From a virus, in IMG/VR virus record IMGVR_UViG_3300032163_000009, positions 1-64,000 of that record: a stretch of DNA of 64,000 bases; one strand, given 5' to 3'. This document shows, one piece after another, positions 98-53,514 of the stretch. The translations under genes and the position numbers were made by a program. Below the pieces are notes generated by a model. The model saw only the letters and a program-made list of their open reading frames with translations, made no database searches and was not told where the DNA came from. The first letter of the stretch is position 1. Each line of letters starts with the position of its first letter.

Positions 98-185
98 CAC
101 CGGCTTGCACGCCGACTGTCTATCGTAGCGTCGATTATCGTAGTGGCTCGGCCATCGCCAGCGGGTGAAGCCGAGACCGTTCGAC
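92..185 (+). mobile_element. integron attC-like recombination site (cassette 1)
   Basis: Inverse core ATCTAAC 92-98; arms CGGCTT-G-CAC-G-CCG-A-CTG / CAG-CGG-GTG-AAGCCG with extrahelical bases; G|TTCGAC at 179-185. Confidence 0.8.
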
Positions 186-884
186 CCGAATACCTACGGT
201 GGGTTGGTGCAATTCATCCGCGACGATGAATTGATGCTGCCCCTGAATCGGCCAGGCTACAAGGCGTGGAAAGAAGAGATCAACGCCAAGATCGATCGCG
301 GCTCGCGGGTGGTGATCTGTCCGTCGTATGTTCGATATGACAGCAAGATCGAAGAGCAGACGGTCGTGTATCACCGCGAGCATTGTTACCCGCCGCGCCC
401 GCGCAATGGCGTCTACACGGTGCAGCGCGTGTTGGAGAAGTCCGATTATCATTCGCGCCGCTTTGTGATCTATCACAATCCACAAGACGAAGTTTACGGC
501 AATTGGTATCAGGACTCGCATACTCGCAAGCGCTCGATCGGCTATTACGTCTACGAACGCGACTGGTGGGTGTTGAACTACGATCGCATTTCGATCGACG
601 ATCTGGACTATTACATCGGATCACGCTTTGAGCGTGACGAATATCTCGACATTCTGCCACTGCTCTATACGCTGCGGCAGCATCGCTTGCAAGAAATCGA
701 ATGGGAAAAGAACTTCGTAAAATTGATCGGCAGCCGTCTGGCTTGCGACGAGGCGATCGTCTGGAAGGCGGTCAACTGGTGGAAGTTCAAAACATTAGTC
801 AAGCGGCCAGTGACTTCCGATGAGCCGAAGGCGCTGCGCATGATCGAACAGAAAATCAAACAGATCCAAAAGAGAGGTGAATAA
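165..884 (+). CDS. hypothetical phage protein, probably the C-terminal part of a gene split by cassette 1
   Basis: The GTG start lies inside attC with no RBS. Coding-like sequence begins at the crossover (FDPNTYGGLVQFIRDDELMLP). Confidence 0.6.
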   Translation: MKPRPFDPNTYGGLVQFIRDDELMLPLNRPGYKAWKEEINAKIDRGSRVVICPSYVRYDSKIEEQTVVYHREHCYPPRPRNGVYTVQRVLEKSDYHSRRFVIYHNPQDEVYGNWYQDSHTRKRSIGYYVYERDWWVLNYDRISIDDLDYYIGSRFERDEYLDILPLLYTLRQHRLQEIEWEKNFVKLIGSRLACDEAIVWKAVNWWKFKTLVKRPVTSDEPKALRMIEQKIKQIQKRGE

Positions 885-886
885 GA

Positions 887-1210
887 ATGTTGAGCAATGA
901 CTTGATGATGTTAGGCTTTACCGGCTTGATGCTGCTGGCCGCGTTCATGGGCATCTTGTTCGGCTGGTTTACGGCGGGTCGGTTTCATCGTTGGCGTGGC
1001 CGCAAAGTTTTGAACGAAGGTTCGGCTGATGATTTGAAGGAGCGCATTGAAATGCGGCGGGCGCTGCTCGGGCTGATTTATGAAAGAGCACACCCCGATC
1101 GAATACCGGCGAACAGTTTAATTCCACACTTGCACGACAGCACGCTGCGCCAATCGCTGCGGGCGATTCTCGATGAAGTGTGGCAAGACGAAATTCAATC
1201 GGAGGATTGA
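887..1210 (+). CDS. hypothetical protein with N-terminal TM helix
   Basis: GAGG RBS, hydrophobic N-terminus, operon spacing. Confidence 0.7.
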   Translation: MLSNDLMMLGFTGLMLLAAFMGILFGWFTAGRFHRWRGRKVLNEGSADDLKERIEMRRALLGLIYERAHPDRIPANSLIPHLHDSTLRQSLRAILDEVWQDEIQSED

Positions 1211-1212
1211 AC

Positions 1213-1737
1213 ATGATGCAAAGACCCCTATGCTTAAAATGCAATGTGGAAATGAAGCCAAAGAAAAACGGCGTGATGGTGGCGGAAACGGCCGGAGATT
1301 CATTGGCTGGCACGCTTCACTTCTATTGTTTGACGGCTGCCGACTTGCTGGAATGTCCGGTGTGCGGTTATGAGATCGTCGCCAATTATGCATCTCGACC
1401 GGCCTATCACGACGTCGGCGATCGAGCGCTGGAAGGCGTTGTCCGAAATTTACTCGATCACGATGTTCCGATCTATCTGTGCCATGAAATCAAAACGGCC
1501 CGCTTGATCGGGCTTGACTGGCCGGACTCGTTGCTGCCGTTGAAGGTGTGCAACAGATCGTATGACTGTCGCGCAGAAAAAGAAGGGCCGACAAATGCGC
1601 ACGGTTCACTGGACGAGACGCTGACACATCATCGCTATCACTGCCCGCGCTGCGACGTGCATCTCACCTCGTTGTTGTTGTGCTCCGGCTGCGGCACGCG
1701 CTATCGAATCGCTAAGCCGGTCGAGGAGCAAAGATGA
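1213..1737 (+). CDS. multi-CxxC zinc-finger hypothetical protein
   Basis: GGAGG RBS; CLKC, CPVC, CPRC and CSGC motifs. Confidence 0.7.
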   Translation: MMQRPLCLKCNVEMKPKKNGVMVAETAGDSLAGTLHFYCLTAADLLECPVCGYEIVANYASRPAYHDVGDRALEGVVRNLLDHDVPIYLCHEIKTARLIGLDWPDSLLPLKVCNRSYDCRAEKEGPTNAHGSLDETLTHHRYHCPRCDVHLTSLLLCSGCGTRYRIAKPVEEQR

Positions 1738-2123
1738 GCGGCGATCGACCGTATGCCCCGCTAAAAGTGCGTGACGCAATTGAGCAACGCGACAGCAAGA
1801 GGCCGTATCAGCCGATCGATCGAGACACCCAACAAAAAGTAGTGACGGCCTTTCATGTGCCGCTGCCGGGCAATCGCGGACCGAAAGGCTATTGCACCGA
1901 TAAGCAGCGCTATGATATTACGGCTTTCTTATGCGGTGGCAATGGGAGCAGCAAAAACATAAGTGAGGCGCAAGGTGTGGCGTTGATTGAGTGGTTAGCC
2001 AAGCCGGAGTTGGCCGCGCTGGAAATGTTAGCCATTCTCGACTTTGTGCAGACTGTCGCCAGTGCAGGCGCGTGGCCGACTGAGCCGCCGTTGCCGTTGG
2101 GAGCAGACGATGATCTATCTTAA
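1734..2123 (+). CDS. hypothetical protein
   Basis: ATGA overlap, GAGGAG RBS. Confidence 0.7.
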   Translation: MSGDRPYAPLKVRDAIEQRDSKRPYQPIDRDTQQKVVTAFHVPLPGNRGPKGYCTDKQRYDITAFLCGGNGSSKNISEAQGVALIEWLAKPELAALEMLAILDFVQTVASAGAWPTEPPLPLGADDDLS

Positions 2124-2277
2124 ATGCACTTGCCCGTTTTTAATCAGCAACGGGGTTGATGATCCACACCTGCCCGATTGTCCGCAGAGCCGCAACTATC
2201 AAGCCGCAACTCAAGCGTCAGTCGAGCAACCAACGCAATTACCTTTGTTGCAAGGAGCAGATGATGAGCAAGTCTAA
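2110..2277 (+). CDS. small hypothetical protein (CxC...HxxxC)
   Basis: GGAG RBS; fills the operon gap. Confidence 0.55.
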   Translation: MIYLKCTCPFLISNGVDDPHLPDCPQSRNYQAATQASVEQPTQLPLLQGADDEQV

Positions 2278-3202
2278 AAACAAGCCGATGCCGATTGAAC
2301 CGAAGGCTGCCGCTAAAGAGATCATCAACATCTTGGGAAGAATTTTGTCCAGCGGCCATCGCCCTAGCGAAATCTTTGACGACTGGATTGAGCAAGTGCA
2401 AGCCAGTCTCAAGCGGCTGCCGCATTTGGCTCAAGCGTCAGCGGAAGGCAAGTCGCTGCCACCTGACCCGCCCGATATACAAAAGATGTTCGAGCGAATG
2501 CACAGTAAATATACGCCAGTGTGTCACGAGACGTTTAGCAAGGCGCTGGCTCAATTAGTCATTGCAGCGGAGGCCAGTTGGGAAGACATCTTAGGCGATG
2601 TCTATATGCAGTGGGGCGCACCGTCGAACGGCCTCGGTCAATTCTTTACGCCGTGGTCAGTGGCCTCGATGATGGCGCACATGACGATGGGCGACATCGA
2701 GCAGCAAATCCATGAGCGCATCAAAGCCGCTGCAACGAAAACGATCGTCGGCCAAGCCTTACTGATGAGCAGTTTGATCATCGATACACCCGCAGACGCG
2801 CAGGAATTTTTCTTCACGCGCTTGCTGCCGGCCGTGCTTCAAGACGTGGAGCCGATTACGATCTGCGATCCAACGGTGGGCAGTGGGGTGATGTTGTTAG
2901 CCGCGGCGGAATGTGTGCCAACCTGGGCGCTGCAATTGGGCTTGGTGCAATTCTTTGGCATGGACATTGATCAGACGTGTGTCACGATGGCGAAGATCAA
3001 CGTCATGCTTCACGGCTTGAACGGCTACGGGCTGGAATGCGCCGATGCACTGACGAACCCGTTGCTGCTGGCAATGCCGATCGCTGAGGAAGTTTACGCG
3101 CCGCTGAAAGATGCGCCGGTGGAAGTGAAGCAAGAAGTTTCGCGCCAATTGCGAACCGGCCAATACCAAATGAATTTGTTCGAGACGGAGGCAAAGACCT
3201 AA
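2261..3202 (+). CDS. N-6 DNA methylase-family (HsdM-like) protein
   Basis: DILGDVYM, GQFFTP, DPTVGSGVML and GMDID motifs; no NPPY seen; C-terminal QMNLF. Confidence 0.8.
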   Translation: MMSKSKNKPMPIEPKAAAKEIINILGRILSSGHRPSEIFDDWIEQVQASLKRLPHLAQASAEGKSLPPDPPDIQKMFERMHSKYTPVCHETFSKALAQLVIAAEASWEDILGDVYMQWGAPSNGLGQFFTPWSVASMMAHMTMGDIEQQIHERIKAAATKTIVGQALLMSSLIIDTPADAQEFFFTRLLPAVLQDVEPITICDPTVGSGVMLLAAAECVPTWALQLGLVQFFGMDIDQTCVTMAKINVMLHGLNGYGLECADALTNPLLLAMPIAEEVYAPLKDAPVEVKQEVSRQLRTGQYQMNLFETEAKT

Positions 3203-3909
3203 TGGCAAGTAGTCAAATCGTCCGATATAATCGGCATGAATTTGATCTGCGCGAAACCGATCAAGTCAAGGCCCTGACCAACTCGTTGCGCACGTCGTTG
3301 AAATTTCCTGAGAAATTGGATCAGTTTATCGAATCCTCAGCGGCGGAGCGCGACCGCATGAAGTGGCAAATGGCGCGAGCGCTGGTCAAATATCTCGACG
3401 CCTTCCCGAAGAACCTGCGCTCGATCGTGCGACCATTGATCGTGGAGCACTACGCGCCGATCATGCGCAACGAAGAAACAACGGTGCGCGAAATGCTCCA
3501 CACCGCCGAGGTCATCCCGATCGGGCTGGAGCAAGACGATCGCTTGTCGATGTTAGGCTTCTCGCACTGGACACGGTTGGCCCGCGTCGGGGATGTCAAA
3601 CTTATCAAGCAGATGCTCGATCAAATTGTTCGAGAAGCCAGCGAAGCCACGCGCATTACATGCGAGTATATCGATCGCCTAAACATCTCGAACAAATTGC
3701 AAAGTGAAGGCTTCGGCAAGCCGGAGATCAACGCGCTGCTGCCGACGCTGGCACCGGCGCAGCCGTCCCACAGTCGTATTCAAGGTCAGGTCGAAGTTTA
3801 TCAAAACGGTCAAGGGCCGCGCAAAGTGATTTGGTTGCCGGTCGATGATCTACAATTTGCCGAAGGCGATCAAGTGATCGTCATTCGGCGCAAAGTGAGC
3901 GAGGAATAA
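3202..3909 (+). CDS. hypothetical protein
   Basis: TAATG overlap, 235 aa. Confidence 0.75.
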   Translation: MASSQIVRYNRHEFDLRETDQVKALTNSLRTSLKFPEKLDQFIESSAAERDRMKWQMARALVKYLDAFPKNLRSIVRPLIVEHYAPIMRNEETTVREMLHTAEVIPIGLEQDDRLSMLGFSHWTRLARVGDVKLIKQMLDQIVREASEATRITCEYIDRLNISNKLQSEGFGKPEINALLPTLAPAQPSHSRIQGQVEVYQNGQGPRKVIWLPVDDLQFAEGDQVIVIRRKVSEE

Positions 3910-3910
3910 C

Positions 3911-4171
3911 ATGGCAGAAAATAAATTGCCTTTGCAGGTGTGGTTTGACGATCACGATTGGGTCGTGGCGGAGACTGCGGCCGATGCTACCGACATCATG
4001 CACGAAGTCTACGGCAATGACAGTTCGGCGCAGCCGGAAGATTTCAGTCAGTTAAGCAGCGACGAATCTATCTCGATCTTCGACGGCGAGACAGAAGAAA
4101 CAGTCAAGCACACGGCCGCTGAATGGATTGCAAGCAATGGGCGAGGCTTACTGGCCTCGGTCGATTTCTAG
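3911..4171 (+). CDS. small acidic hypothetical protein
   Basis: GAGGA RBS, operon position. Confidence 0.7.
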   Translation: MAENKLPLQVWFDDHDWVVAETAADATDIMHEVYGNDSSAQPEDFSQLSSDESISIFDGETEETVKHTAAEWIASNGRGLLASVDF

Positions 4172-4179
4172 GCGCAGAG

Positions 4180-4869
4180 ATGAATACAGACGATCCGCAG
4201 ATCAAAGAACTACAAGAACGCGCGGCGCAGCATCGAGCGCGAGCAGCCGCACTGCGCCAGCGACGCGAGCACCGCTTCGACAATGCGCCCGGCTCATTCG
4301 TGACTGGTAGCAGCGGCCGCCGTCGATCGGGACTTGCCAAGCGCAGCGAACGCGCAATGGCCGGCGCACTGAACGACAGTCGCAAGGCGAGCTGGCACGA
4401 TGATCGAGCAGCGCATTTGGAATATCGAGTCAAGTGGCTGCTCGGCGAAGAACAACGATCAATCGATCGGCTTAAAGCGCAAGCCGATCAAAAAGCAAGC
4501 CGAGCAGCGGCTACCCGGCAACGGCGAGCGATGACTGCGCAAGAAAAATTGTTTGCCTATCACTGCGCCACAGGCTGGGCCTATGCTGATAAGAGCCGCT
4601 GGCAAGACAATGATTACACTTTGATCGCCATTCTCTTTGCCAGCGATTTGACGGTGAGTATTCACAATCCGTGCGCGCCTGACCTCATGGCTTTGATCGA
4701 GGCGGACATAGCGAAAATAAAAGCGCGAGTCGGTGAGAAGGTTGGGTATAACGGTGGCAGCACCTATTTTAGAATCGGTTACAAGTTGCCTGAATCAAAG
4801 GCACTGGACGAAGAAGAAGACCAACAATCTCGAAAGGCTGTGGAGGCATTGTATGCACAGATGGCTTGA
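4180..4869 (+). CDS. hypothetical protein
   Basis: Long ORF within the operon. Confidence 0.65.
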   Translation: MNTDDPQIKELQERAAQHRARAAALRQRREHRFDNAPGSFVTGSSGRRRSGLAKRSERAMAGALNDSRKASWHDDRAAHLEYRVKWLLGEEQRSIDRLKAQADQKASRAAATRQRRAMTAQEKLFAYHCATGWAYADKSRWQDNDYTLIAILFASDLTVSIHNPCAPDLMALIEADIAKIKARVGEKVGYNGGSTYFRIGYKLPESKALDEEEDQQSRKAVEALYAQMA

Positions 4870-5065
4870 CTGGTATGTAGCCCTGTCGGCTTTGTTCGGA
4901 GGCGGAGCAGCGGCTTTCTTTATGCTCGGCGCAATTAGCGCAGCGACTTATCCAGTCGATGCCCTATTCTGCATCTTGGCCGCGCTGGTGCTATTGCTGC
5001 TCGTTGCGATCGGCGGCATTGGGCTGATCTTGATGAGAGTGGCGGGCTTGAACAATGATCGTTAA
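4853..5065 (+). CDS. small membrane protein (2 TM)
   Basis: GGAGG RBS, two hydrophobic stretches. Confidence 0.6.
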   Translation: MHRWLDWYVALSALFGGGAAAFFMLGAISAATYPVDALFCILAALVLLLLVAIGGIGLILMRVAGLNNDR

Positions 5066-5309
5066 CCCTAGCCCGCCGTTTGCGGTTGAGCATGTGCTGC
5101 CGATCATGCGCGATGAAAAGACGCAGACGCGGCGCGTAGTTTGGCCTCAATCGAGTTACGCGTCAGCCGATTGGAAACCGAAGCACGGCCCAGTTGGCAC
5201 GCGCTGGTATCTGCGCGAAGCATTGGCGCGACACGACGGCGAGTCCGGTCGATGGATTTTGTACGCGGCCGATCACGCCTTCGCTAAAAACGACGCAGGT
5301 CAAGCGTTG

Positions 5310-5547
5310 TTAGGCGTTTGGGGGTCAAATGGAAAACACTTGTGAATGGGGTTATTTGGAAGATGACGATGTTTGGGAAACATCCTGCGATGAGATGCAC
5401 TATCTCAATAGTGGTGATCCCGAAACAAATCGGTATAAGTTCTGTCCGTATTGTGGGCAACGCCTAACAATGCGTGCAGTGGACGCTGCGCCGATTGAGG
5501 CGGATGAAGAATAAAGTTATGGCGGCTTGCGCCACTAACGCAAGCCG
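5310..5547 (+). mobile_element. integron-type gene cassette 2 (238 bp), attC at 5462-5547
   Basis: Starts TTAGGC (G|TTAGGC 5309-5315). Matching inverse core GCCTAAC 5462-5468. Arms GCGT-G-CAGTGG-A-CGC / GCG-CCACTA-ACGC. Ends AAGCCG. Confidence 0.85.
5329..5514 (+). CDS. cassette-borne small Zn-ribbon-like protein
   Basis: C..W, WETSC, GDPETNRYKFCPYCG; the C-terminus reads into attC. Confidence 0.75.
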   Translation: MENTCEWGYLEDDDVWETSCDEMHYLNSGDPETNRYKFCPYCGQRLTMRAVDAAPIEADEE

Positions 5548-6017
5548 AAATGGCGTTGGAAGAAAAGTAAACTGGCGTCGCTGTATATGCCAGCCAACTG
5601 CGCTCGAACGCGCCTGCTCGTCGTCGGGGTTCGAGTCGAACGCTTGCACGACCTCAGCGCAACGGATTGCCGCGCTGAGGGCTATAGCGCTCGAACCGAT
5701 TACTTTTCGGAATGGGACAAGATGAACGCCGATCGCGGCCACGCGGCTGAAACAAATCCAGTGGTATGTGCTTATACGTTTCTGCGAGAGCGGCCAACTT
5801 TTGTTGAGCGCTGGCGGACAGAATCAGAAGCACTAGGCATTCCGCTTTATAATCGCGCGACGATCGCCCAAATGAAAAGCGGCAAGGCGCGAGTGTTTCG
5901 GCCTGGTCATATCAACCCTGATAATTTCTTGCCGGAACCGCAAGAGTTCGACACCTACTATGCGGCCTTCGATTACTTGCAAGCCTATCTGCTGGCCGTT
6001 AAGGAGAAGATGCAGCG

Positions 6018-6485
6018 ATGAAAGTTCTATCTATTCAGCAGCCGTGGGCTTCTTTGATTATGGCCGGAGTGAAGCACGCCGAAACGCGATCGTGGTCAAC
6101 GCTGCATCGCGGGGAGTTAGGCATCCACAGCAGCGCCTCGATCGCAGGCTACATGCGCAACATTTACGAAGAAGATAGTTTGTTCTGCGCGTTGCTCAAA
6201 GATATTGGCGTGCTGAAATGGCCTGACATTTTCAAATTGCCGTTAGGCAAATTGCTTGGCACCGTCAACCTGATCAATTGCGTCTCCACGACCAGCGGCG
6301 ATCACTACTGGTCAACCGTTGAACGGGCGCTCGGAGATTTTTCGCGCGGGCGCTTCGCCTGGCTCTTTGACAAAGAGCGCACGGTGTACGCGCAACCGAT
6401 TCCGCTGCGCGGTTCACTGAGTCTGTGGACTTATAATCCGCCGACTAGCGCGACAAATGAGGTTGATCTAACGTGCCGAAATTGA
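6018..6485 (+). CDS. ASCH domain protein
   Basis: MKVLSIQQPWASLI..G.K..ETRSW.T.HRG.L.IH and PIPLRGSLSLW signature. Confidence 0.9.
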   Translation: MKVLSIQQPWASLIMAGVKHAETRSWSTLHRGELGIHSSASIAGYMRNIYEEDSLFCALLKDIGVLKWPDIFKLPLGKLLGTVNLINCVSTTSGDHYWSTVERALGDFSRGRFAWLFDKERTVYAQPIPLRGSLSLWTYNPPTSATNEVDLTCRN

Positions 6486-6958
6486 TCGCCGTTCCAATCA
6501 CACTCAGAGAAGCAAATAATTTTGTGTCTGAATACCACAGACACAATGGCCGTACAGCGCGTGACGGTGGAAAGTTTGCGATCGGCGCATCAACTGGAGC
6601 GGAATTAGTTGGAGTTGCAATAGTTGGTAACCCACTGTCTGCAACATATATGGACGGATTTACGGCAGAGGTTTTACGAGTTTGTGTTTCGCCCGCTTCA
6701 CCAAAGGGTACAAACTCGTTTTTATATTCTCGATGCTGGAAAGCATATCGAGCGATGGGCGGATTAAGATTGATCACTTATACACTCACTTCTGAAAGTG
6801 GCGCATCATTGCGCGGCGCTGGCTGGACTGTTCTGCATAAAACACAAGGACATGATGCTTGGGCGGCTAAATCTCGAATGGATGGCAAAGAGCGCCAATG
6901 GCAAAGTGTTTACGGCCAGCAAAAGATATGCTGGATTGTTGAAGAGGTGAAACCATGA
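6473..6958 (+). CDS. XF1762-family / Mom-like GNAT-fold protein
   Basis: PITLREAN.FV..HRH, VGVAIVG.P, EVLRVC, SFLY, ITYTL.SESGASLRGAGW. Confidence 0.8.
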   Translation: MPKLIAVPITLREANNFVSEYHRHNGRTARDGGKFAIGASTGAELVGVAIVGNPLSATYMDGFTAEVLRVCVSPASPKGTNSFLYSRCWKAYRAMGGLRLITYTLTSESGASLRGAGWTVLHKTQGHDAWAAKSRMDGKERQWQSVYGQQKICWIVEEVKP

Positions 6959-47872: not shown

Positions 47873-48023
47873 TTAAGCCCCCTGCTCCATTGTTACCTTT
47901 GTTTTCATTGTTTCTGCCTTTGTTCTCTCTTGTACTCGAATGTTCTGTATTGTCTCCGAGCACAGACTTTGGGCGACCACTCCCCGCGCTTGGGGCAGGG
48001 GAGTGGTCGCCGCCTTGAAAAAT

Positions 48024-49217
48024 CTACAACCCGTTATCTCGGATGTGGCGGAACAGTTTGATCAAAGTGTCATGCTCGCCGACGAGATGGTTGCCGCCGT
48101 CCTCGCCCTGCCCCGGTTGGCTGATCACATAACCGGCACGCTGCAAAGGCTCAATCCAGTCCGACCATTTCTTGGAAGTATAGTTGGGCAACCAACGGAA
48201 GCCTGGGATCGTGTCGGAGTTTTCGGTCCATTGATACGGCAGTTTGTTGCGTTTGCCTTTGGCGCGCATGGCGGCACTGAGCAAGGCAACGACATGCTTG
48301 CGTTCAATGAATTTCTTTTGACGCTCTGCGAGTTCGGCTGGATCATCGGCGTAGAAAGTTTCGCGTCCGAGATTGCGGATCAACACACCGCTGGGCGTTG
48401 TCGGCAACGCGCCGGAAAAATTCTGACCTTGATGACTAACGACTTCGGCCTTTGGAGTTTCGGCGGCTGAATCCGCAGCCGGTGGTGTAAAGAATTCCTG
48501 TGGCTCACTTAGCCTCGAAGTCGGCGCAGCCAGCAAAAGAATTTCAGCGCCTTGCAACTCGCCCCAGCGGTTGTACCTCAATTTCAACCAGCCGCGATCC
48601 TTGTCCCAGAACGTGGTCGTTTTCGTGTTCAAGTGTCGCAGCAAGATCGCCAGTCCGATGATCGCCGCCAAGACACCCGCTGCCACTAAAAAGCCGATCG
48701 CCAATCGCCCGACGCCGTTGTTGTAATTGGATTGATCGATCGAGTCGTGCAAGTCTTGCGCGGTCTGCGTCGCTTGCACCATGGTATTGGTTTGCTGGAT
48801 GAGCGCGGCTTGCTGCGTCGCGCTCAGTGACACTTGCGACTCGATCGCCAGCGCGGTCGCGGTCGCTTTGACGATGGCCGATTTTTCTTGCAGCGCGATG
48901 GCCGTTGCTTGCAGGTTCAAGGCTTGCACCGTTGACGTGAAGATCAAGGCTTGGGCTTGCTGCGTCGCCATGATCGAGCGGCCTTGCGCATCGACTTGCG
49001 CCTGAACCTGCGCGGTCGCCTCGGCAATCCTCACATTCAAAGCTTGCTGCGTCGCGCGCAAATTATCTTGTTGGGAATTGATCGACACCGATTGACCCGC
49101 CAGACCGATCGACGGCGGTTCACTTTGATCAGCTGAACTCACCGCGAAGCAACCGGCCAAAATAAAACTAGACAGTCCGATCGCCGTCAGTGCCAATAAT
49201 TTTCGGTTAGTCATCAT
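48024..49217 (-). CDS. lipoprotein/membrane protein with ATQ/TA-rich coil
   Basis: Lipobox LAGC, ATQQA repeats, one TM. Confidence 0.75.
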   Translation of the reverse strand: MMTNRKLLALTAIGLSSFILAGCFAVSSADQSEPPSIGLAGQSVSINSQQDNLRATQQALNVRIAEATAQVQAQVDAQGRSIMATQQAQALIFTSTVQALNLQATAIALQEKSAIVKATATALAIESQVSLSATQQAALIQQTNTMVQATQTAQDLHDSIDQSNYNNGVGRLAIGFLVAAGVLAAIIGLAILLRHLNTKTTTFWDKDRGWLKLRYNRWGELQGAEILLLAAPTSRLSEPQEFFTPPAADSAAETPKAEVVSHQGQNFSGALPTTPSGVLIRNLGRETFYADDPAELAERQKKFIERKHVVALLSAAMRAKGKRNKLPYQWTENSDTIPGFRWLPNYTSKKWSDWIEPLQRAGYVISQPGQGEDGGNHLVGEHDTLIKLFRHIRDNGL

Positions 49218-49638
49218 CACTCTCCGTCGCCCGTCGTTCGTTCAAGATCATTTCCAATTGGGTAGCTGCTTCATCAATGCTCGTCCGATCAACGCTCGGC
49301 AAGAAATCGATCGTCGGTTGCGGCCATTCAATTTTCTCCGGCGTGTAATTCGGGCGGCTGCTTTGAACTCGATGCAAAAACATTCGAGCGCCTTCATCAC
49401 TGAATCCCATTTGTGTTTTGTGTTTCATGATCAAGCGGTCGAGCCATTGGCGCTGGCGGGGCGTGATACGATCCGACTTCGCCAACTGCTGAACAAATTT
49501 ATCGGCCTGATTGAACGCGCCAAATTTGCAGCGACTCAATTTCTTGATCGCCTCGCGCTCCGCGTCTGTCTGATCAAACCACACCACCGGCACTTTGGTT
49601 GTCATTCGCTGTCCCCTCACCTGCTTCATTTGCTTCAT
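49207..49638 (-). CDS. hypothetical protein
   Basis: Operon position. Confidence 0.6.
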   Translation of the reverse strand: MKQMKQVRGQRMTTKVPVVWFDQTDAEREAIKKLSRCKFGAFNQADKFVQQLAKSDRITPRQRQWLDRLIMKHKTQMGFSDEGARMFLHRVQSSRPNYTPEKIEWPQPTIDFLPSVDRTSIDEAATQLEMILNERRATESDDD

Positions 49639-49888
49639 CTATTTCTTGCCACCGCGCAGGTGGCACATATTGACTGCCCACAATTTTCAATTCATACCAA
49701 GTGCGCCCGACGATCACCAGTCCCTCTTTCGCCAAGGCGTTCAAAATATATTTCAAGTGACTGGCTGACGACACCTTGAACCGTTTGATCACCTCAGCCC
49801 GATCAGGCAACGCGCCTTGATGATCGATCAAGTATTGAACAAGGTAACGGTAGAGGGCGTGATAGTTTTTCTTGCGTGTGCCTGACAT
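49574..49888 (-). CDS. LexA-like winged-helix DNA-binding protein
   Basis: Y...H...P.RAEV...F.VSS.S.....L..L.KEGLV. Confidence 0.7.
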   Translation of the reverse strand: MSGTRKKNYHALYRYLVQYLIDHQGALPDRAEVIKRFKVSSASHLKYILNALAKEGLVIVGRTWYELKIVGSQYVPPARWQEIDEANEAGEGTANDNQSAGGVV

Positions 49889-50305
49889 GCCGGTATCTTA
49901 GTTCATAACGCCTAAAATGTCCAGTGGCAATTTTAAGCCGTGCGGTAGACACCGCAGCGATGCATTGGCGCAGCGCGGCAAAGAATAACGGCAACGCCTA
50001 CGGTTGAATTTCAACGCGGCTGGACTAAAATGATGTGGACTATGTGTTCGCATGTGCGACGCGCTGCTGTGTGCTTTTAGCACTGCAAACAATATACCCA
50101 AACTGCGCAGCGCGTCCTACCCGTTTTGGGGCGATTTTGGTCCCGCCGTCCAGCCCCTAAACTGCCCGCAGGACGCTTGAGAACCCAAAAGAGCGCCCCT
50201 ACAGCCCTATCTATATGTAGGAACAGCCCCAAATAAGCGCTGCGCAACGCTGCAAACAACCCCCAAAACTGACATTGTAGACCCCTCTTTTTGCCCAGTT
50301 GATAG

Positions 50306-50334
50306 TTGACATTTACTGTATAAACGTTTATACT
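50306..50334 (+). promoter_or_regulatory. consensus sigma70 early promoter with overlapping palindromic operator
   Basis: TTGACA-17-TATACT; 16-bp palindrome GTATAAACGTTTATAC at 50318-50333. Confidence 0.88.
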
Positions 50335-50340
50335 GTTTTT

Positions 50341-51095
50341 GCAACAAGCAATTGCAACGCGCAGATGGATAGCAAGACACACAACGGTTTGGGAACGTAA
50401 AAGGAATTTCTGCACAGGTTTCCCACCCGATCTAGGCGCGCAAAAAACAAAATGGAACGGTACTGCGTTTAAGAGTTTGTGTGTTGCGCAGTGCAGCAGG
50501 TTGAGGAATGTTTGTGAAGTGCAGATGGCGGTCGTTTTTTCGGGCAGCGCGCCAGCAAGTGCAAAGTAACAAAAAACATTCAACCTAAAGCACAGCGCGT
50601 AGAACGCTAAACAAACCACAGGCCACATTTTGAAATAGCAGTTGTGCAAATAGTGTGAGGAGTTGTTAGCATGTGCGAACGGGCTAACATGCGCAGCAGA
50701 AAATAATAGCTGCGCAGGATCGCTACACTTGGGGATGAACACGCTCCAGAAAATTGAGAACTGTTTGTGGACTGGGCTACATGCGCAGCAAACAAACTGA
50801 ACAGCAAATTGTTCGTAACCTCTCAAATCCATTTAGTCCACTCACTGCCGCACTTGTAGAAAGTTTACAAGGCGACAAACAAAACACCTACATCCGGCCA
50901 GACCGGTGACATACTTTGCAAATCGTTTGGACTAGAAAATTGTTAGGCGCTGCGGACTGCGAGCAGGTTTGCACACGTTGCAAAATAACTCCGCTGGACA
51001 GCTTCAACGTCCGTAACCCGCAGCGCCTAACCCAACGATTGAAAATAAATTTTGCAGCCCGTTCGACGCGCTGCAAAATTTGCGTTCAACCAAAT
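50341..51095 (+). ncRNA. putative large structured non-coding RNA / leader
   Basis: No credible ORF; at least 8 stems, several nested, with G-U pairs in the plus sense. Confidence 0.6.
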
Positions 51096-51124
51096 CCAAA
51101 ACGCAGAACACAGGAGAACAAAAA

Positions 51125-51811
51125 ATGGCACTGCAATCGAAACAAAGCGTGGTAAAGGAAATTACGAAATTGGAATTGAAACTGCGCGGCAAGTTTTTTC
51201 AAGAGCGAGGCCGGACGTGGTTTAGCAGCAAGTTGACTCGCAAGCAACGCGCTGACATTGAATGGCGGGTCGCAGTGCATCATCGTTGGTTCGAGATGCA
51301 CTTGACCGCAGCCGAATACAAAAAACTGAAAGCAGAGTACGGCTGTGAACGCAAAGGCTGCTATGTGTTCGTCACCGCGCAGTTAGAAACAGTGCGCGTG
51401 ACGATCCCGGCGGCTAAGTTCAGCGGCAAACAAACGCGCGAAAATTTCCAAATCGATTTTATCGAACGCGACTACATGGCAAAGCAAGTGCAACGCACAA
51501 GGAGCAATGACATGCACAACAAGGTAATTAAAACCGATCTTAAGACTTTTGAGCGCGACCGAGAAACTGCACTGAAAGAATTTTGCGTTTGGCACAATTT
51601 GAAAATTGTCAAACGCTATACGACGCGCACCGAATACGCCGTCCCCAAAGGCAACTTACTGCGCGGCGGCGACACAAACGATCGCGTGCTGATGGCATGT
51701 GGTTGCCGATTGCGCTACGAATATTTGAAAGGTTGGCGGTTTGCAGATAAACACGCAGCCCGACATGAAACAAACTGCGCTGACAATGAATTCAACGGTT
51801 ACGTTTGGTAA
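51125..51811 (+). CDS. hypothetical early protein
   Basis: AGGAG RBS. Confidence 0.7.
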   Translation: MALQSKQSVVKEITKLELKLRGKFFQERGRTWFSSKLTRKQRADIEWRVAVHHRWFEMHLTAAEYKKLKAEYGCERKGCYVFVTAQLETVRVTIPAAKFSGKQTRENFQIDFIERDYMAKQVQRTRSNDMHNKVIKTDLKTFERDRETALKEFCVWHNLKIVKRYTTRTEYAVPKGNLLRGGDTNDRVLMACGCRLRYEYLKGWRFADKHAARHETNCADNEFNGYVW

Positions 51812-51840
51812 CCACTCAATCACCTCAAGGAGAAAATAAA

Positions 51841-52413
51841 ATGTCCGACAAAAATTTGAATCAACTATTGAAGAAGGCCGACGAAGCCCGCAGTCAAGTG
51901 AACTACTTTACAGACGCCCAGTTAGCTTACCGGTTAATCGCCCGACGCGGCTCCAAAGGTTTTGTGCGCAGCGCGAAAGAAGGTCAAGTGTACGACCAGA
52001 TGGCGTGCGTGGCAGTGCAATTGAAGAAGGATGTGCTTGCCGGTGACACCACACACATTTCATTGAGCATCGGAGCAGCCAAAGAACTGCGCAGCCAATT
52101 GAACACCGCGATCGAGCAGTATGAATTTGCAACGCGACAAGATGACATTGAAACGCGAGCACGCGAGGACGCCAAGGCGGGCTTGAAGCCGCTGATGATT
52201 TGGACGGCGATTGTGGAATGGCGACTGTGCGGCAGCAACACTGTAGGCGGCAAAGAAGTGATCGAGCGCGAAGAAGTAGATTTGCAAATCCGCAGCGACG
52301 ATCGAACGATTGCGCGTGAGGCAATGAAAGAGGAACTGTCGCGCAATTACCGCGAGGGCGGCAAAATTATTTCGATGGGCAAGCGCGGCAACCTGTCCGT
52401 TTATCAACTGTAA
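51841..52413 (+). CDS. hypothetical early protein
   Basis: AAGGAG RBS. Confidence 0.7.
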   Translation: MSDKNLNQLLKKADEARSQVNYFTDAQLAYRLIARRGSKGFVRSAKEGQVYDQMACVAVQLKKDVLAGDTTHISLSIGAAKELRSQLNTAIEQYEFATRQDDIETRAREDAKAGLKPLMIWTAIVEWRLCGSNTVGGKEVIEREEVDLQIRSDDRTIAREAMKEELSRNYREGGKIISMGKRGNLSVYQL

Positions 52414-52423
52414 AAGATTCGAA

Positions 52424-52551
52424 CGCGCTGCGCAGTGCAACGCCCTCACCCACCGGCGAGGAGGCAAGACTTAGGCACTGCGCAGCGCGGGTTATTGTTT
52501 TGCCCGCGTGTGCGTTGGCAACGACGCATAGGCGGGCAAGCCGGTAACGGT
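52424..52551 (+). ncRNA. intergenic structured RNA element with GNRA tetraloops
   Basis: 15-bp perfect stem 52424-52438/52475-52489; GCAA- and GTAA-capped hairpins. Confidence 0.55.
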
Positions 52552-52581
52552 TTGACTACATTTTGATCGGAGAAAAATAAA

Positions 52582-52860
52582 ATGGCACACCTTGAAAATG
52601 AAATCGCTCCACTATCATCTAGCGTAAAAAAGGAAATCAGAAACAAACTCGACGGGCTGGCAGACAAAGTTACTTTCCACCGCGACGGCAGTATCGAGAT
52701 TCGCTTCGGCTTCTTTTATCGTCACGGCATGACGACCGAGACTTGCAAGAAAAATGTATTGGCCGTCGTGCCCGATGCAAAATTTGTCGAAGATGAATGC
52801 TTTGAGAATTGGCAGCCGTGGCCGCGTGACTCTTACTTCAAGATCACCTTCAAGATTTAA
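52582..52860 (+). CDS. hypothetical protein
   Basis: ATCGGAGA RBS. Confidence 0.7.
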   Translation: MAHLENEIAPLSSSVKKEIRNKLDGLADKVTFHRDGSIEIRFGFFYRHGMTTETCKKNVLAVVPDAKFVEDECFENWQPWPRDSYFKITFKI

Positions 52861-52893
52861 GATCAATTCCAAATTTCAATCGGAGGCAGTGAC

Positions 52894-53193
52894 ATGATTA
52901 AAACAATTCAATATACACTCAGGTTCACTGAGGGCATTGCTTCATCGATGAAGCACCATATAACAATAACGTGTGGGAGTGTAACTGGAAAGGCGACTGT
53001 CGAAATTACAGAAACAGATGACGGCCGGCTTGGTGATGGCTCTAAGGAAAATCCGTTCATTGGGCGACTGTTAGAAATGGCGGACGACCATGAAGTGAAT
53101 CTAAGCGGGCCGTATGACGCACGCGGGAATTTCAGAAACTTGAGCGGCGCACATGAATATGGTTCACCGCGCAATCTGGACATCGAGAAGTAA
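52894..53193 (+). CDS. hypothetical protein flanked by direct repeats
   Basis: AAATTTCAATCGGAGGCA on both sides. Confidence 0.65.
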   Translation: MIKTIQYTLRFTEGIASSMKHHITITCGSVTGKATVEITETDDGRLGDGSKENPFIGRLLEMADDHEVNLSGPYDARGNFRNLSGAHEYGSPRNLDIEK

Positions 53194-53215
53194 AATTTCA
53201 ATCGGAGGCAACGAC

Positions 53216-53485
53216 ATGCTCGCTTTACATCGCACGGCCAAGACGCAGCGTCAAACCAACAGCACATTGACGGACTGCGTCGTTAAGACTTTCCTGATCG
53301 AGATCGAAGACGCGCTGCGCACTTACTGTCAACAGCACGGCTTCACGATCGACCGGCGCCGGATCGTGTTCATCAAAGAGGCGCGCAACATCGGCGCGCT
53401 GACCGTCAACATCGCGCTGGTCAAGCGCGGAGGTCGGCACTTCACGCTATACGAACAAAACGCGCAATGGTGCAAAGTCAACTGA
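53216..53485 (+). CDS. hypothetical protein
   Basis: ATCGGAGG RBS. Confidence 0.65.
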   Translation: MLALHRTAKTQRQTNSTLTDCVVKTFLIEIEDALRTYCQQHGFTIDRRRIVFIKEARNIGALTVNIALVKRGGRHFTLYEQNAQWCKVN

Positions 53486-53514
53486 ACGACATTCAAATGA
53501 TCGGAGGATCAAAA

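Follow-up and report, generated by a model that had tools for sequence, protein, structure and literature searches.

A candidate long untranslated leader ahead of the rightward early operon of a phage

The stretch of about 785 nt that lies ahead of the rightward early operon of the phage described here is best explained as a long, cis-acting and untranslated 5′ leader, transcribed under the control of an operator-regulated promoter. We give this tentative reading a probability of roughly 45%. Taken by itself, the DNA is most economically, and plausibly, read as a template for a plus-strand RNA that is non-coding and partly structured, because it combines a strong promoter, nested stems and an absence of coding signal with an A-over-T skew like that of the downstream operon. 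We would class the stretch as a phage early leader/control region of unusual length.

Should it be functional, all the early genes of a relative-less phage lineage would be preceded by a cis-regulatory RNA of unusual length. The leader would also offer a compact test case for immediate-early gating, in which a repressor and its operator act together with a second layer of control, exerted on RNA elongation, processing or translation. At present the value of the leader is that of a lead to be taken up when relatives or the host turn up, rather than that of a discovery.

Genomic context

The source record (IMG/VR) is linear, 77,735 bp in length and about 73% complete by estimate. Its first 64 kb make up the window, by which we mean the whole 64,000-nt stretch of DNA that was analysed, and all coordinates are counted from its first nucleotide. 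The single public run that contains the stretch is a sediment metagenome, which is probably its source. An independent assembly of the source run places 48000–53500 within one 35-kb contig, with zero differences, variants or joints, and the gap is therefore not an artefact of joining.

The genome is tightly packed, with genes oriented rightward from 165 to 6958, leftward from 7490 to 49888 and, from 51125 up to its end, rightward once more. Two transcription units diverge from the largest non-coding gap of the genome (49889–51124; 1,236 bp), and both the minimum of the cumulative GC skew and the switch in gene orientation fall at 50–51 kb. Within the gap, GC content drops below 0.40 solely at the promoter (0.38–0.39). 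The A-over-T skew is the same in the putative leader and in the downstream operon, which was counted in favour of the leader reading.

Several short words are distributed unevenly. The recurrence of TGCGCA and the absence of CGATCG, both remarked on in the preliminary description, are real: there are six copies of the former where 1.0 would be expected, and zero copies of the latter between 49313 and 51679. The tetranucleotide GATC is found twice in the gap against an expectation of 11.8. Across the genome GATC is abundant (745 copies, about 2.4 times the random number), yet it is nearly missing from the gap. CTGCAG and CTCGAG have zero copies genome-wide against about 21 and 25, respectively, expected from their sub-words, which suggests restriction avoidance. 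A cyanobacterial host was considered and rejected: CGATCG is frequent, but GCGATCGC occurs just three times and the count of CGATCG matches the sub-word expectation. Protelomerase or parS-type sites were also considered and set aside, since a perfect long palindrome is missing and no such enzyme was recognised.

Coding potential of the stretch

It had been proposed from the outset that no credible open reading frame (ORF) lies between about 50341 and the ATG at 51125, and this was borne out, since all six frames score as non-coding. The ORF-free stretch (50341–51124, plus strand; about 784 nt) is what we take to be the early operon's untranslated leader. A three-periodic Markov model served to score coding potential. 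Trained on 28 of the phage's long genes, it gives true genes 0 to +0.25 per codon, small untrained neighbours included, and the ORFs of the gap −0.1 to −0.3 in all six frames. The 3-base periodicity of the gap is 0.6–1.1 versus 2–20 for genes, and its GC content is level across codon positions.

Promoter and candidate operator

The main rightward early promoter (TTGACA, a 17-nt spacer and TATACT; 50306–50334, plus strand) has a predicted start near 50341. The preliminary description had called it a consensus promoter, and it does match at 11 of 12 positions; the consensus is of the sigma-70 type. Sites that match at 11 or more of the 12 positions number seven in 77.7 kb, the main early promoter included. 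The other strong promoters of the genome stand some 20–50 nt from their genes, whereas this one is 784 nt away.

The spacer and −10 element of the promoter are overlapped by a 22-bp palindrome (ACTGTATAAAC/GTTTATACTGT; 50315–50336) with agreement at 10 of 11 arm positions, which we regard as a candidate operator. No second copy of the palindrome occurs in the window at up to three mismatches. Three copies of its half-site core, TGTATAA, are present on the genomic plus strand (77.7 kb). Two of them occupy spacer positions 6–12, in the same register, of two strong rightward promoters, P50306 (50306–50334) and P56625 (56625–56653), and this shared element suggests that one regulator serves both.

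The divergent gene on the other side of the gap (49574–49888, minus strand) has a positive coding score and encodes a 104-aa protein that consists of a LexA-type DNA-binding domain (LexA-DBD) only; it is a candidate repressor of the early promoter. Its match to the Pfam family LexA_DNA_bind has an E value of 0.0028, which is weaker than the curated cut-off. The nearest clusters in the ESM Atlas are LexA_DNA_bind-only proteins of 80–108 aa, many of them viral, with scores of 0.90–0.93 and structural TM values of 0.55–0.61. A promoter-like site for this gene (TGGACA, a 17-nt spacer and TAAGAT; 49895–49923, minus strand) is a pattern match only, at 9 of 12 positions. Because its −10 element ends 6 nt ahead of the ATG, the mRNA may be leaderless. 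A palindrome over the −10 element together with a divergent LexA-DBD gene suggests an operator-controlled early promoter. A palindrome overlapping a promoter beside a divergent gene for a DNA-binding protein is the layout of LexA/CI-like repressor–operator pairs, and binding of the one to the other is presumed here.

Folding of the stretch

The stretch folds above chance. On the plus strand, its minimum free energy is −246.5 kcal/mol, which corresponds to a z-score of −3.85 against 45 dinucleotide shuffles. Thirteen genome controls of the same size, folded in sense orientation, have a mean z of −0.22 (sd 1.28; minimum −2.84), and the value for the leader is thus lower than all 13, which was counted in support of the leader reading. 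The minus strand reaches a z of −3.26; since both strands fold well, the fold gives no call on the strand.

Above-chance structure is concentrated in four modules, termed A to D. In 150-nt windows, the genome background has a mean z of −0.16 (sd 1.24), with one of 88 windows below −3. Inside the transcript just two such windows fall below −3 (50651–50800 and 50901–51050), while most of 50301–50650 and of 50701–50900 lies between +0.9 and −1.7, like shuffled sequence. The modules themselves have z-scores of −3.1 to −5.2, which, set against the single background window in 88, was likewise counted for the leader. The initial characterization of the stretch as densely structured is overstated: modules A–D account for about 43% of it and more than half folds like shuffled sequence, so that ‘modular’ is the accurate term.

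All eight stems that had been listed do pair where they had been placed, the first with a bulge. Two are perfect, namely the 14-bp stem 50942–50955/51018–51031 and the 12-bp stem 51047–51058/51070–51081. The linkers are A-rich, as described, with 49% A among the unpaired bases of the predicted fold. The statement that G-U pairs work in the plus sense did not hold up as a strand argument: the eight stems have five G-U pairs versus one A-C, three of the five are found together where a single stem is weak, at its end, and the minus strand folds equally.

Module A (50484–50600, plus strand; z −3.1 on both the plus and the minus strand) is a long, imperfectly paired hairpin that has further stems nested inside; its arms are 30 nt long and 70% complementary. 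Module B (50664–50716, plus strand; z −4.8 plus, −4.5 minus) consists of two abutting hairpins, the first with 7+3 bp and a GCGA loop, the second with 8 bp and an 11-nt A-rich loop. It contains an 11-codon upstream ORF (uORF; 50671–50706) with AGGAG 8 nt upstream. Between modules B and C lies a C-rich, G-poor and weakly structured segment (50781–50898, plus strand; C/G about 2.1; z −0.9 to −1.7), which is rut-like by composition only. Module C (50921–51041, plus strand; z −4.3 plus, −3.7 minus) is a three-way junction with a 14-bp closing stem and an outer extension of 7–9 bp. Module D (51039–51089, plus strand; z −5.2 plus, −5.9 minus) is a 51-nt near-palindrome that forms a hairpin of roughly 20 bp with a perfect 12-bp core. 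It is the longest inverted repeat of the 64-kb window and ends 23 nt ahead of the ribosome-binding site (RBS) of the first early gene. Of the twelve long inverted repeats in the window, the gap contains three, and a fourth falls in the small gap that comes next. In modules A and C the stems are nested and their arms lie 53–62 nt apart, an arrangement more in keeping with the folding of a single strand than with protein-binding sites on duplex DNA.

Strand and 3′ end

The plus sense is favoured because the only good promoter reads rightward, because no leftward promoter was found in the gap and because the A-over-T skew runs on into the operon; in addition, the GNRA tetraloop (GCGA) of hairpin 1 of module B exists on the plus strand only. 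No intrinsic terminator, in the form of a stem followed by a U-run, was found on the plus strand of 50341–51125, and the sequence after modules C and D is A-rich or mixed. With no terminator before 51125, a transcript from 50341 should enter the first gene, which makes it a 5′ leader and not a separate RNA gene. The preliminary description had envisaged a free-standing non-coding RNA (ncRNA); such an RNA would have its own promoter here, but a terminator of its own was not found in 50341–51125.

The first early gene, p228 (51112–51811 including its RBS, AGGAGA; plus strand), begins with the ATG at 51125, encodes 228 aa and has a positive coding score. Its RBS is free in the predicted folds, a modelled feature that was counted against the leader reading.

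The upstream half of the gap

A further module, U (50036–50146, plus strand), consists of a perfect 10-bp inverted repeat (50058–50067/50107–50116) followed by a small, terminator-like T-run hairpin (50113–50140). A transcript begun at the main promoter would not include this module, which is preceded by a weak promoter-like site at 50004–50031. The 150-nt windows of 50001–50250 have z-scores of −5.3, −3.4 and −3.9 on the plus strand and −3.0, −2.1 and −2.8 on the minus strand, and the 111-nt piece of module U folded alone has a z of −2.2. The value of −5.3 (50001–50150) is the most negative local z of the gap and is found upstream of the promoter, which was counted against the leader reading.

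Words of 10–15 nt recur on both sides of the promoter. The gap holds three of the eight genomic copies of GACGCGCTGC, four of the nine of TGGACTA and both copies of GCATGTGCGA, and it is enriched in TGCGCAGC, with five copies versus 31 in the whole window. The structure had been taken to belong to the transcript, a restriction that does not stand given the local z of −5.3 and the same words upstream of the promoter. The upstream fold and the shared words may mean that part of the signal acts on DNA, or that some RNA starts at 50004–50031. The same half of the gap has a C-rich tract (50095–50275) upstream of the promoter with CCCAAA and CCCTAAACTG-type words, in four and three copies, which may be a cluster of binding sites or an upstream promoter element.

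Relatives and known RNA families

The comparison with Rfam that the preliminary description had recommended yielded zero matches in the whole window at gathering scores (cmscan, Rfam 15). At E values up to 10, 49700–52700 gave two irrelevant weak matches, both outside the stretch, and the covariance models of ROOL and GOLLD left the stretch unmatched even at this level. ARAGORN detected neither tRNA nor tmRNA genes anywhere in the 64-kb window. The suggestion of a new class of large ncRNA is accordingly not upheld: the stretch has no Rfam match and no terminator, and its structure takes up less than half of it and is strand-neutral.

The early region has likewise proved isolated. Searched by blastn against 50,697 phage records, the gap has no relative, and none was found in IMG/VR for p228, the LexA-DBD protein or the ERF-like protein. 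Only self-hits were obtained for p228 and the translation of a 251-codon open frame of the gap among 5.8 billion proteins, and a self-hit only for the 398-aa neighbour among 1.84 billion protein representatives; p228 found nothing in the ESM Atlas. The JGI metagenome contigs gave no relative with the 251-aa frame and p190 as queries, and the GTDB genome contigs gave only a partial LexA-DBD match of 34 residues in an Ekhidna metagenome-assembled genome, which is uninformative. Searched for as exact patterns, the promoter/operator and module D have no second copy in IMG/VR. Among phages, the nearest relative, at 61% identity in the portal, is a contig of 17 kb that stops short of the early region. 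The closest homologues of the AAA-ATPase have 52% identity. Among 80 phage loci whose AAA-ATPase is at most 48% identical, the AAA module alone is common and there is no similarity to the gap or the early genes. On the sequences searched, this would be a phage lineage without sequenced relatives of its early region.

Alternative explanations

An unlikely alternative is that the gap is a control or replication region at the level of DNA, such as a transcription-activated origin, an array of regulator binding sites or a partition site, and that its inverted repeats matter as DNA. The coincidence of GC-skew minimum and orientation switch at 50–51 kb speaks for it, as do the repeated words that flank the promoter on both sides, the enrichment of TGCGCAGC, the strongly folding module upstream of the promoter and the stems, which are pure Watson–Crick and strand-neutral; the phage also encodes a 699-aa ParB-like protein. 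However, the repeat array, DnaA boxes and AT-rich unwinding element that would mark an iteron or DnaA-type origin are missing from the gap: no tandem repeats or iteron array were found by TRF, the direct repeats being two to four loose copies, there is no DnaA box at up to one mismatch, and the AT-rich part is the promoter alone. No replication initiator gene was recognised beside the gap, GATC is depleted in it, and nested stems with arms 53–62 nt apart would make poor targets for dimeric proteins and costly cruciforms. Hidden coding, whether as small genes for early proteins or as what is left of a decayed gene, is hardly probable at all. Its largest candidate is the 251-codon open frame on the minus strand (50077–50832), an open run that dinucleotide shuffling of the gap seldom produces (P about 0.002) and that is annotated as a gene in a public protein collection, with itself as the only hit; three short ORFs with an RBS, of 24, 11 and 23 codons, are present on the plus strand. 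Yet the long frame scores −0.14 per codon, has a periodicity of 1.1 and flat GC over codon positions, would encode 7.1% cysteine versus 0.6% in the proteins of the phage, crosses the strong opposing promoter and has no homologue in the protein collection or in metagenome and genome contigs, while the short ORFs jointly cover less than 25% of the stretch. We treat the 251-codon frame as non-coding.

The remaining alternatives keep the RNA and change its role. That the stretch specifies a free-standing large ncRNA of a new class, similar to ROOL or GOLLD, which would be the first of the early transcripts and work in trans, is improbable. Its length, lack of ORFs, multi-branch module and 49% A among unpaired bases are what such an RNA might have, and its fold lies below those of all 13 same-size controls; against this, there is no 3′ end signal ahead of the first gene, no Rfam match at gathering score or at E up to 10 and no tRNA gene nearby, above-chance structure is limited to about 43% of the stretch, and no second copy or relative turned up in the collections searched, where at least one would be expected of a widespread class. 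A still bolder version holds that the 0.8-kb stretch, or a 1.1-kb RNA from about 50031 that includes module U, represents a new class of large structured phage RNA which is made first in infection and has effects outside its own operon, for instance by modifying polymerase for antitermination or by serving as an anti-defence decoy, with this phage as the only sequenced carrier so far; we think this very improbable. Equally slight are the chances of a processive antitermination RNA, in which a module of the leader, likeliest B, would by analogy with put of phage HK022 bind RNA polymerase and have it read through terminators. Put RNAs have two stem-loops in about 70 nt, and putR is situated about 270 nt past the PR start (PMC9378689); module B has 53 nt in two abutting hairpins and lies about 323 nt past the predicted start, and the second early gene is followed by a terminator-like element with a 15-bp stem and a U-rich run (52424–52500). 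The resemblance is nevertheless architectural only, terminator-like sites occur in the operon at the frequency of shuffles (22 versus 21.2) and no boxA or ops motif is present. For a lambda-type nut site, CGCTCTTA was not found in 50341–51125 at up to one mismatch, and for an rrn-type boxA at up to three mismatches the same interval has one chance match only, on the minus strand.

Proposed mode of action of the leader

Under the preferred reading, that of a cis-acting untranslated leader, the LexA-DBD-only protein would bind the palindrome and repress the early promoter. Once the promoter fires, the leader would work in cis on its own operon. Being long and untranslated, such a leader would be an obvious target for Rho, and the C-rich unstructured segment (50781–50898) would expose the untranslated RNA to it. 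Module B, with its short uORF, may modulate elongation and could couple translation to elongation. Modules C and D, as long helices near the RBS, may be sites of processing, stability or translation control.

Comparison with known systems

In the pL–N leader of lambda, nutL and an RNase III-sensitive hairpin precede the start of N, and the early leader of T7 has the RNase III site R0.3 before gene 0.3. The leader proposed here shares with the lambda N and T7 leaders a strong host-type early promoter, the lack of translation and an irregular helix of about 20 bp (module D) near the RBS of the first gene; the divergent repressor gene, here a candidate, is common to lambdoid switches. Unlike these leaders, it is two to three times longer, and unlike that of lambda it has no boxA or nut-like motif that we could find. 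There is no sequence similarity to either leader, and the likeness of modules C and D to RNase III sites is one of predicted helices only.

The immunity RNAs of P4 (CI RNA) and P1/P7 (c4) are encoded in the leaders of early operons. Like them, the present stretch would be an untranslated early leader with structured RNA and internal complementary segments, but its internal complementarities are at chance level for its length. Intergenic origins of phages and the RNA II primer of ColE1 combine inverted repeats with a promoter that reads into non-coding DNA. Such a promoter and inverted repeats are also seen here, along with the largest gap, divergent units and a GC-skew minimum; unlike those origins, the gap has no iterons, DnaA boxes, AT-rich unwinding element other than the promoter or adjacent initiator gene that could be found.

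The put RNA of HK022 forms a triplex in stem I and contacts the zinc-binding domain of the β′ subunit of RNA polymerase (PMC9378689). A two-stem-loop element downstream of an early promoter is common to both systems, at 323 nt for module B and 270 nt for putR; in contrast to put, module B measures 53 nt rather than about 70 nt and is one module among several. ROOL and GOLLD, for which Rfam models exist, typically occur near tRNA islands in phages and prophages (PMC12286853). The stretch resembles these RNAs in being phage-borne, hundreds of nucleotides long, free of ORFs and A-rich in its unpaired bases (PMC12286853). It differs from them, whose extensive structure has the support of covariation, in having no Rfam match, no tRNA island and no 3′ end, and in being structured above chance over less than half of its length.

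Other structured elements of the genome

A second structured element (52424–52552) follows the second early gene, whose stop is at 52413, and precedes the next start at 52582. The element comprises a perfect 15-bp stem around 36 nt, a U-rich run (GGUUAUUGUUUU) and then a hairpin of about 25 bp, and has an RNAfold z of −6.3. It could be a terminator or attenuator, or a processing site, that parts the immediate-early gene pair from the rest.

The most structured of the genome controls is 69200–69500, which lies within an ORF (68974–70008) and has z-scores of −5.8 (150 nt, 69350) and −2.8 (784 nt, 69200). The word CCCGTTTTG occurs twice in the genome, at 50120–50128, within upstream module U, and at 68673, in a short 5′ UTR after a perfect 12/12 promoter at 68613. 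Both copies form a small CCC/GGG hairpin.
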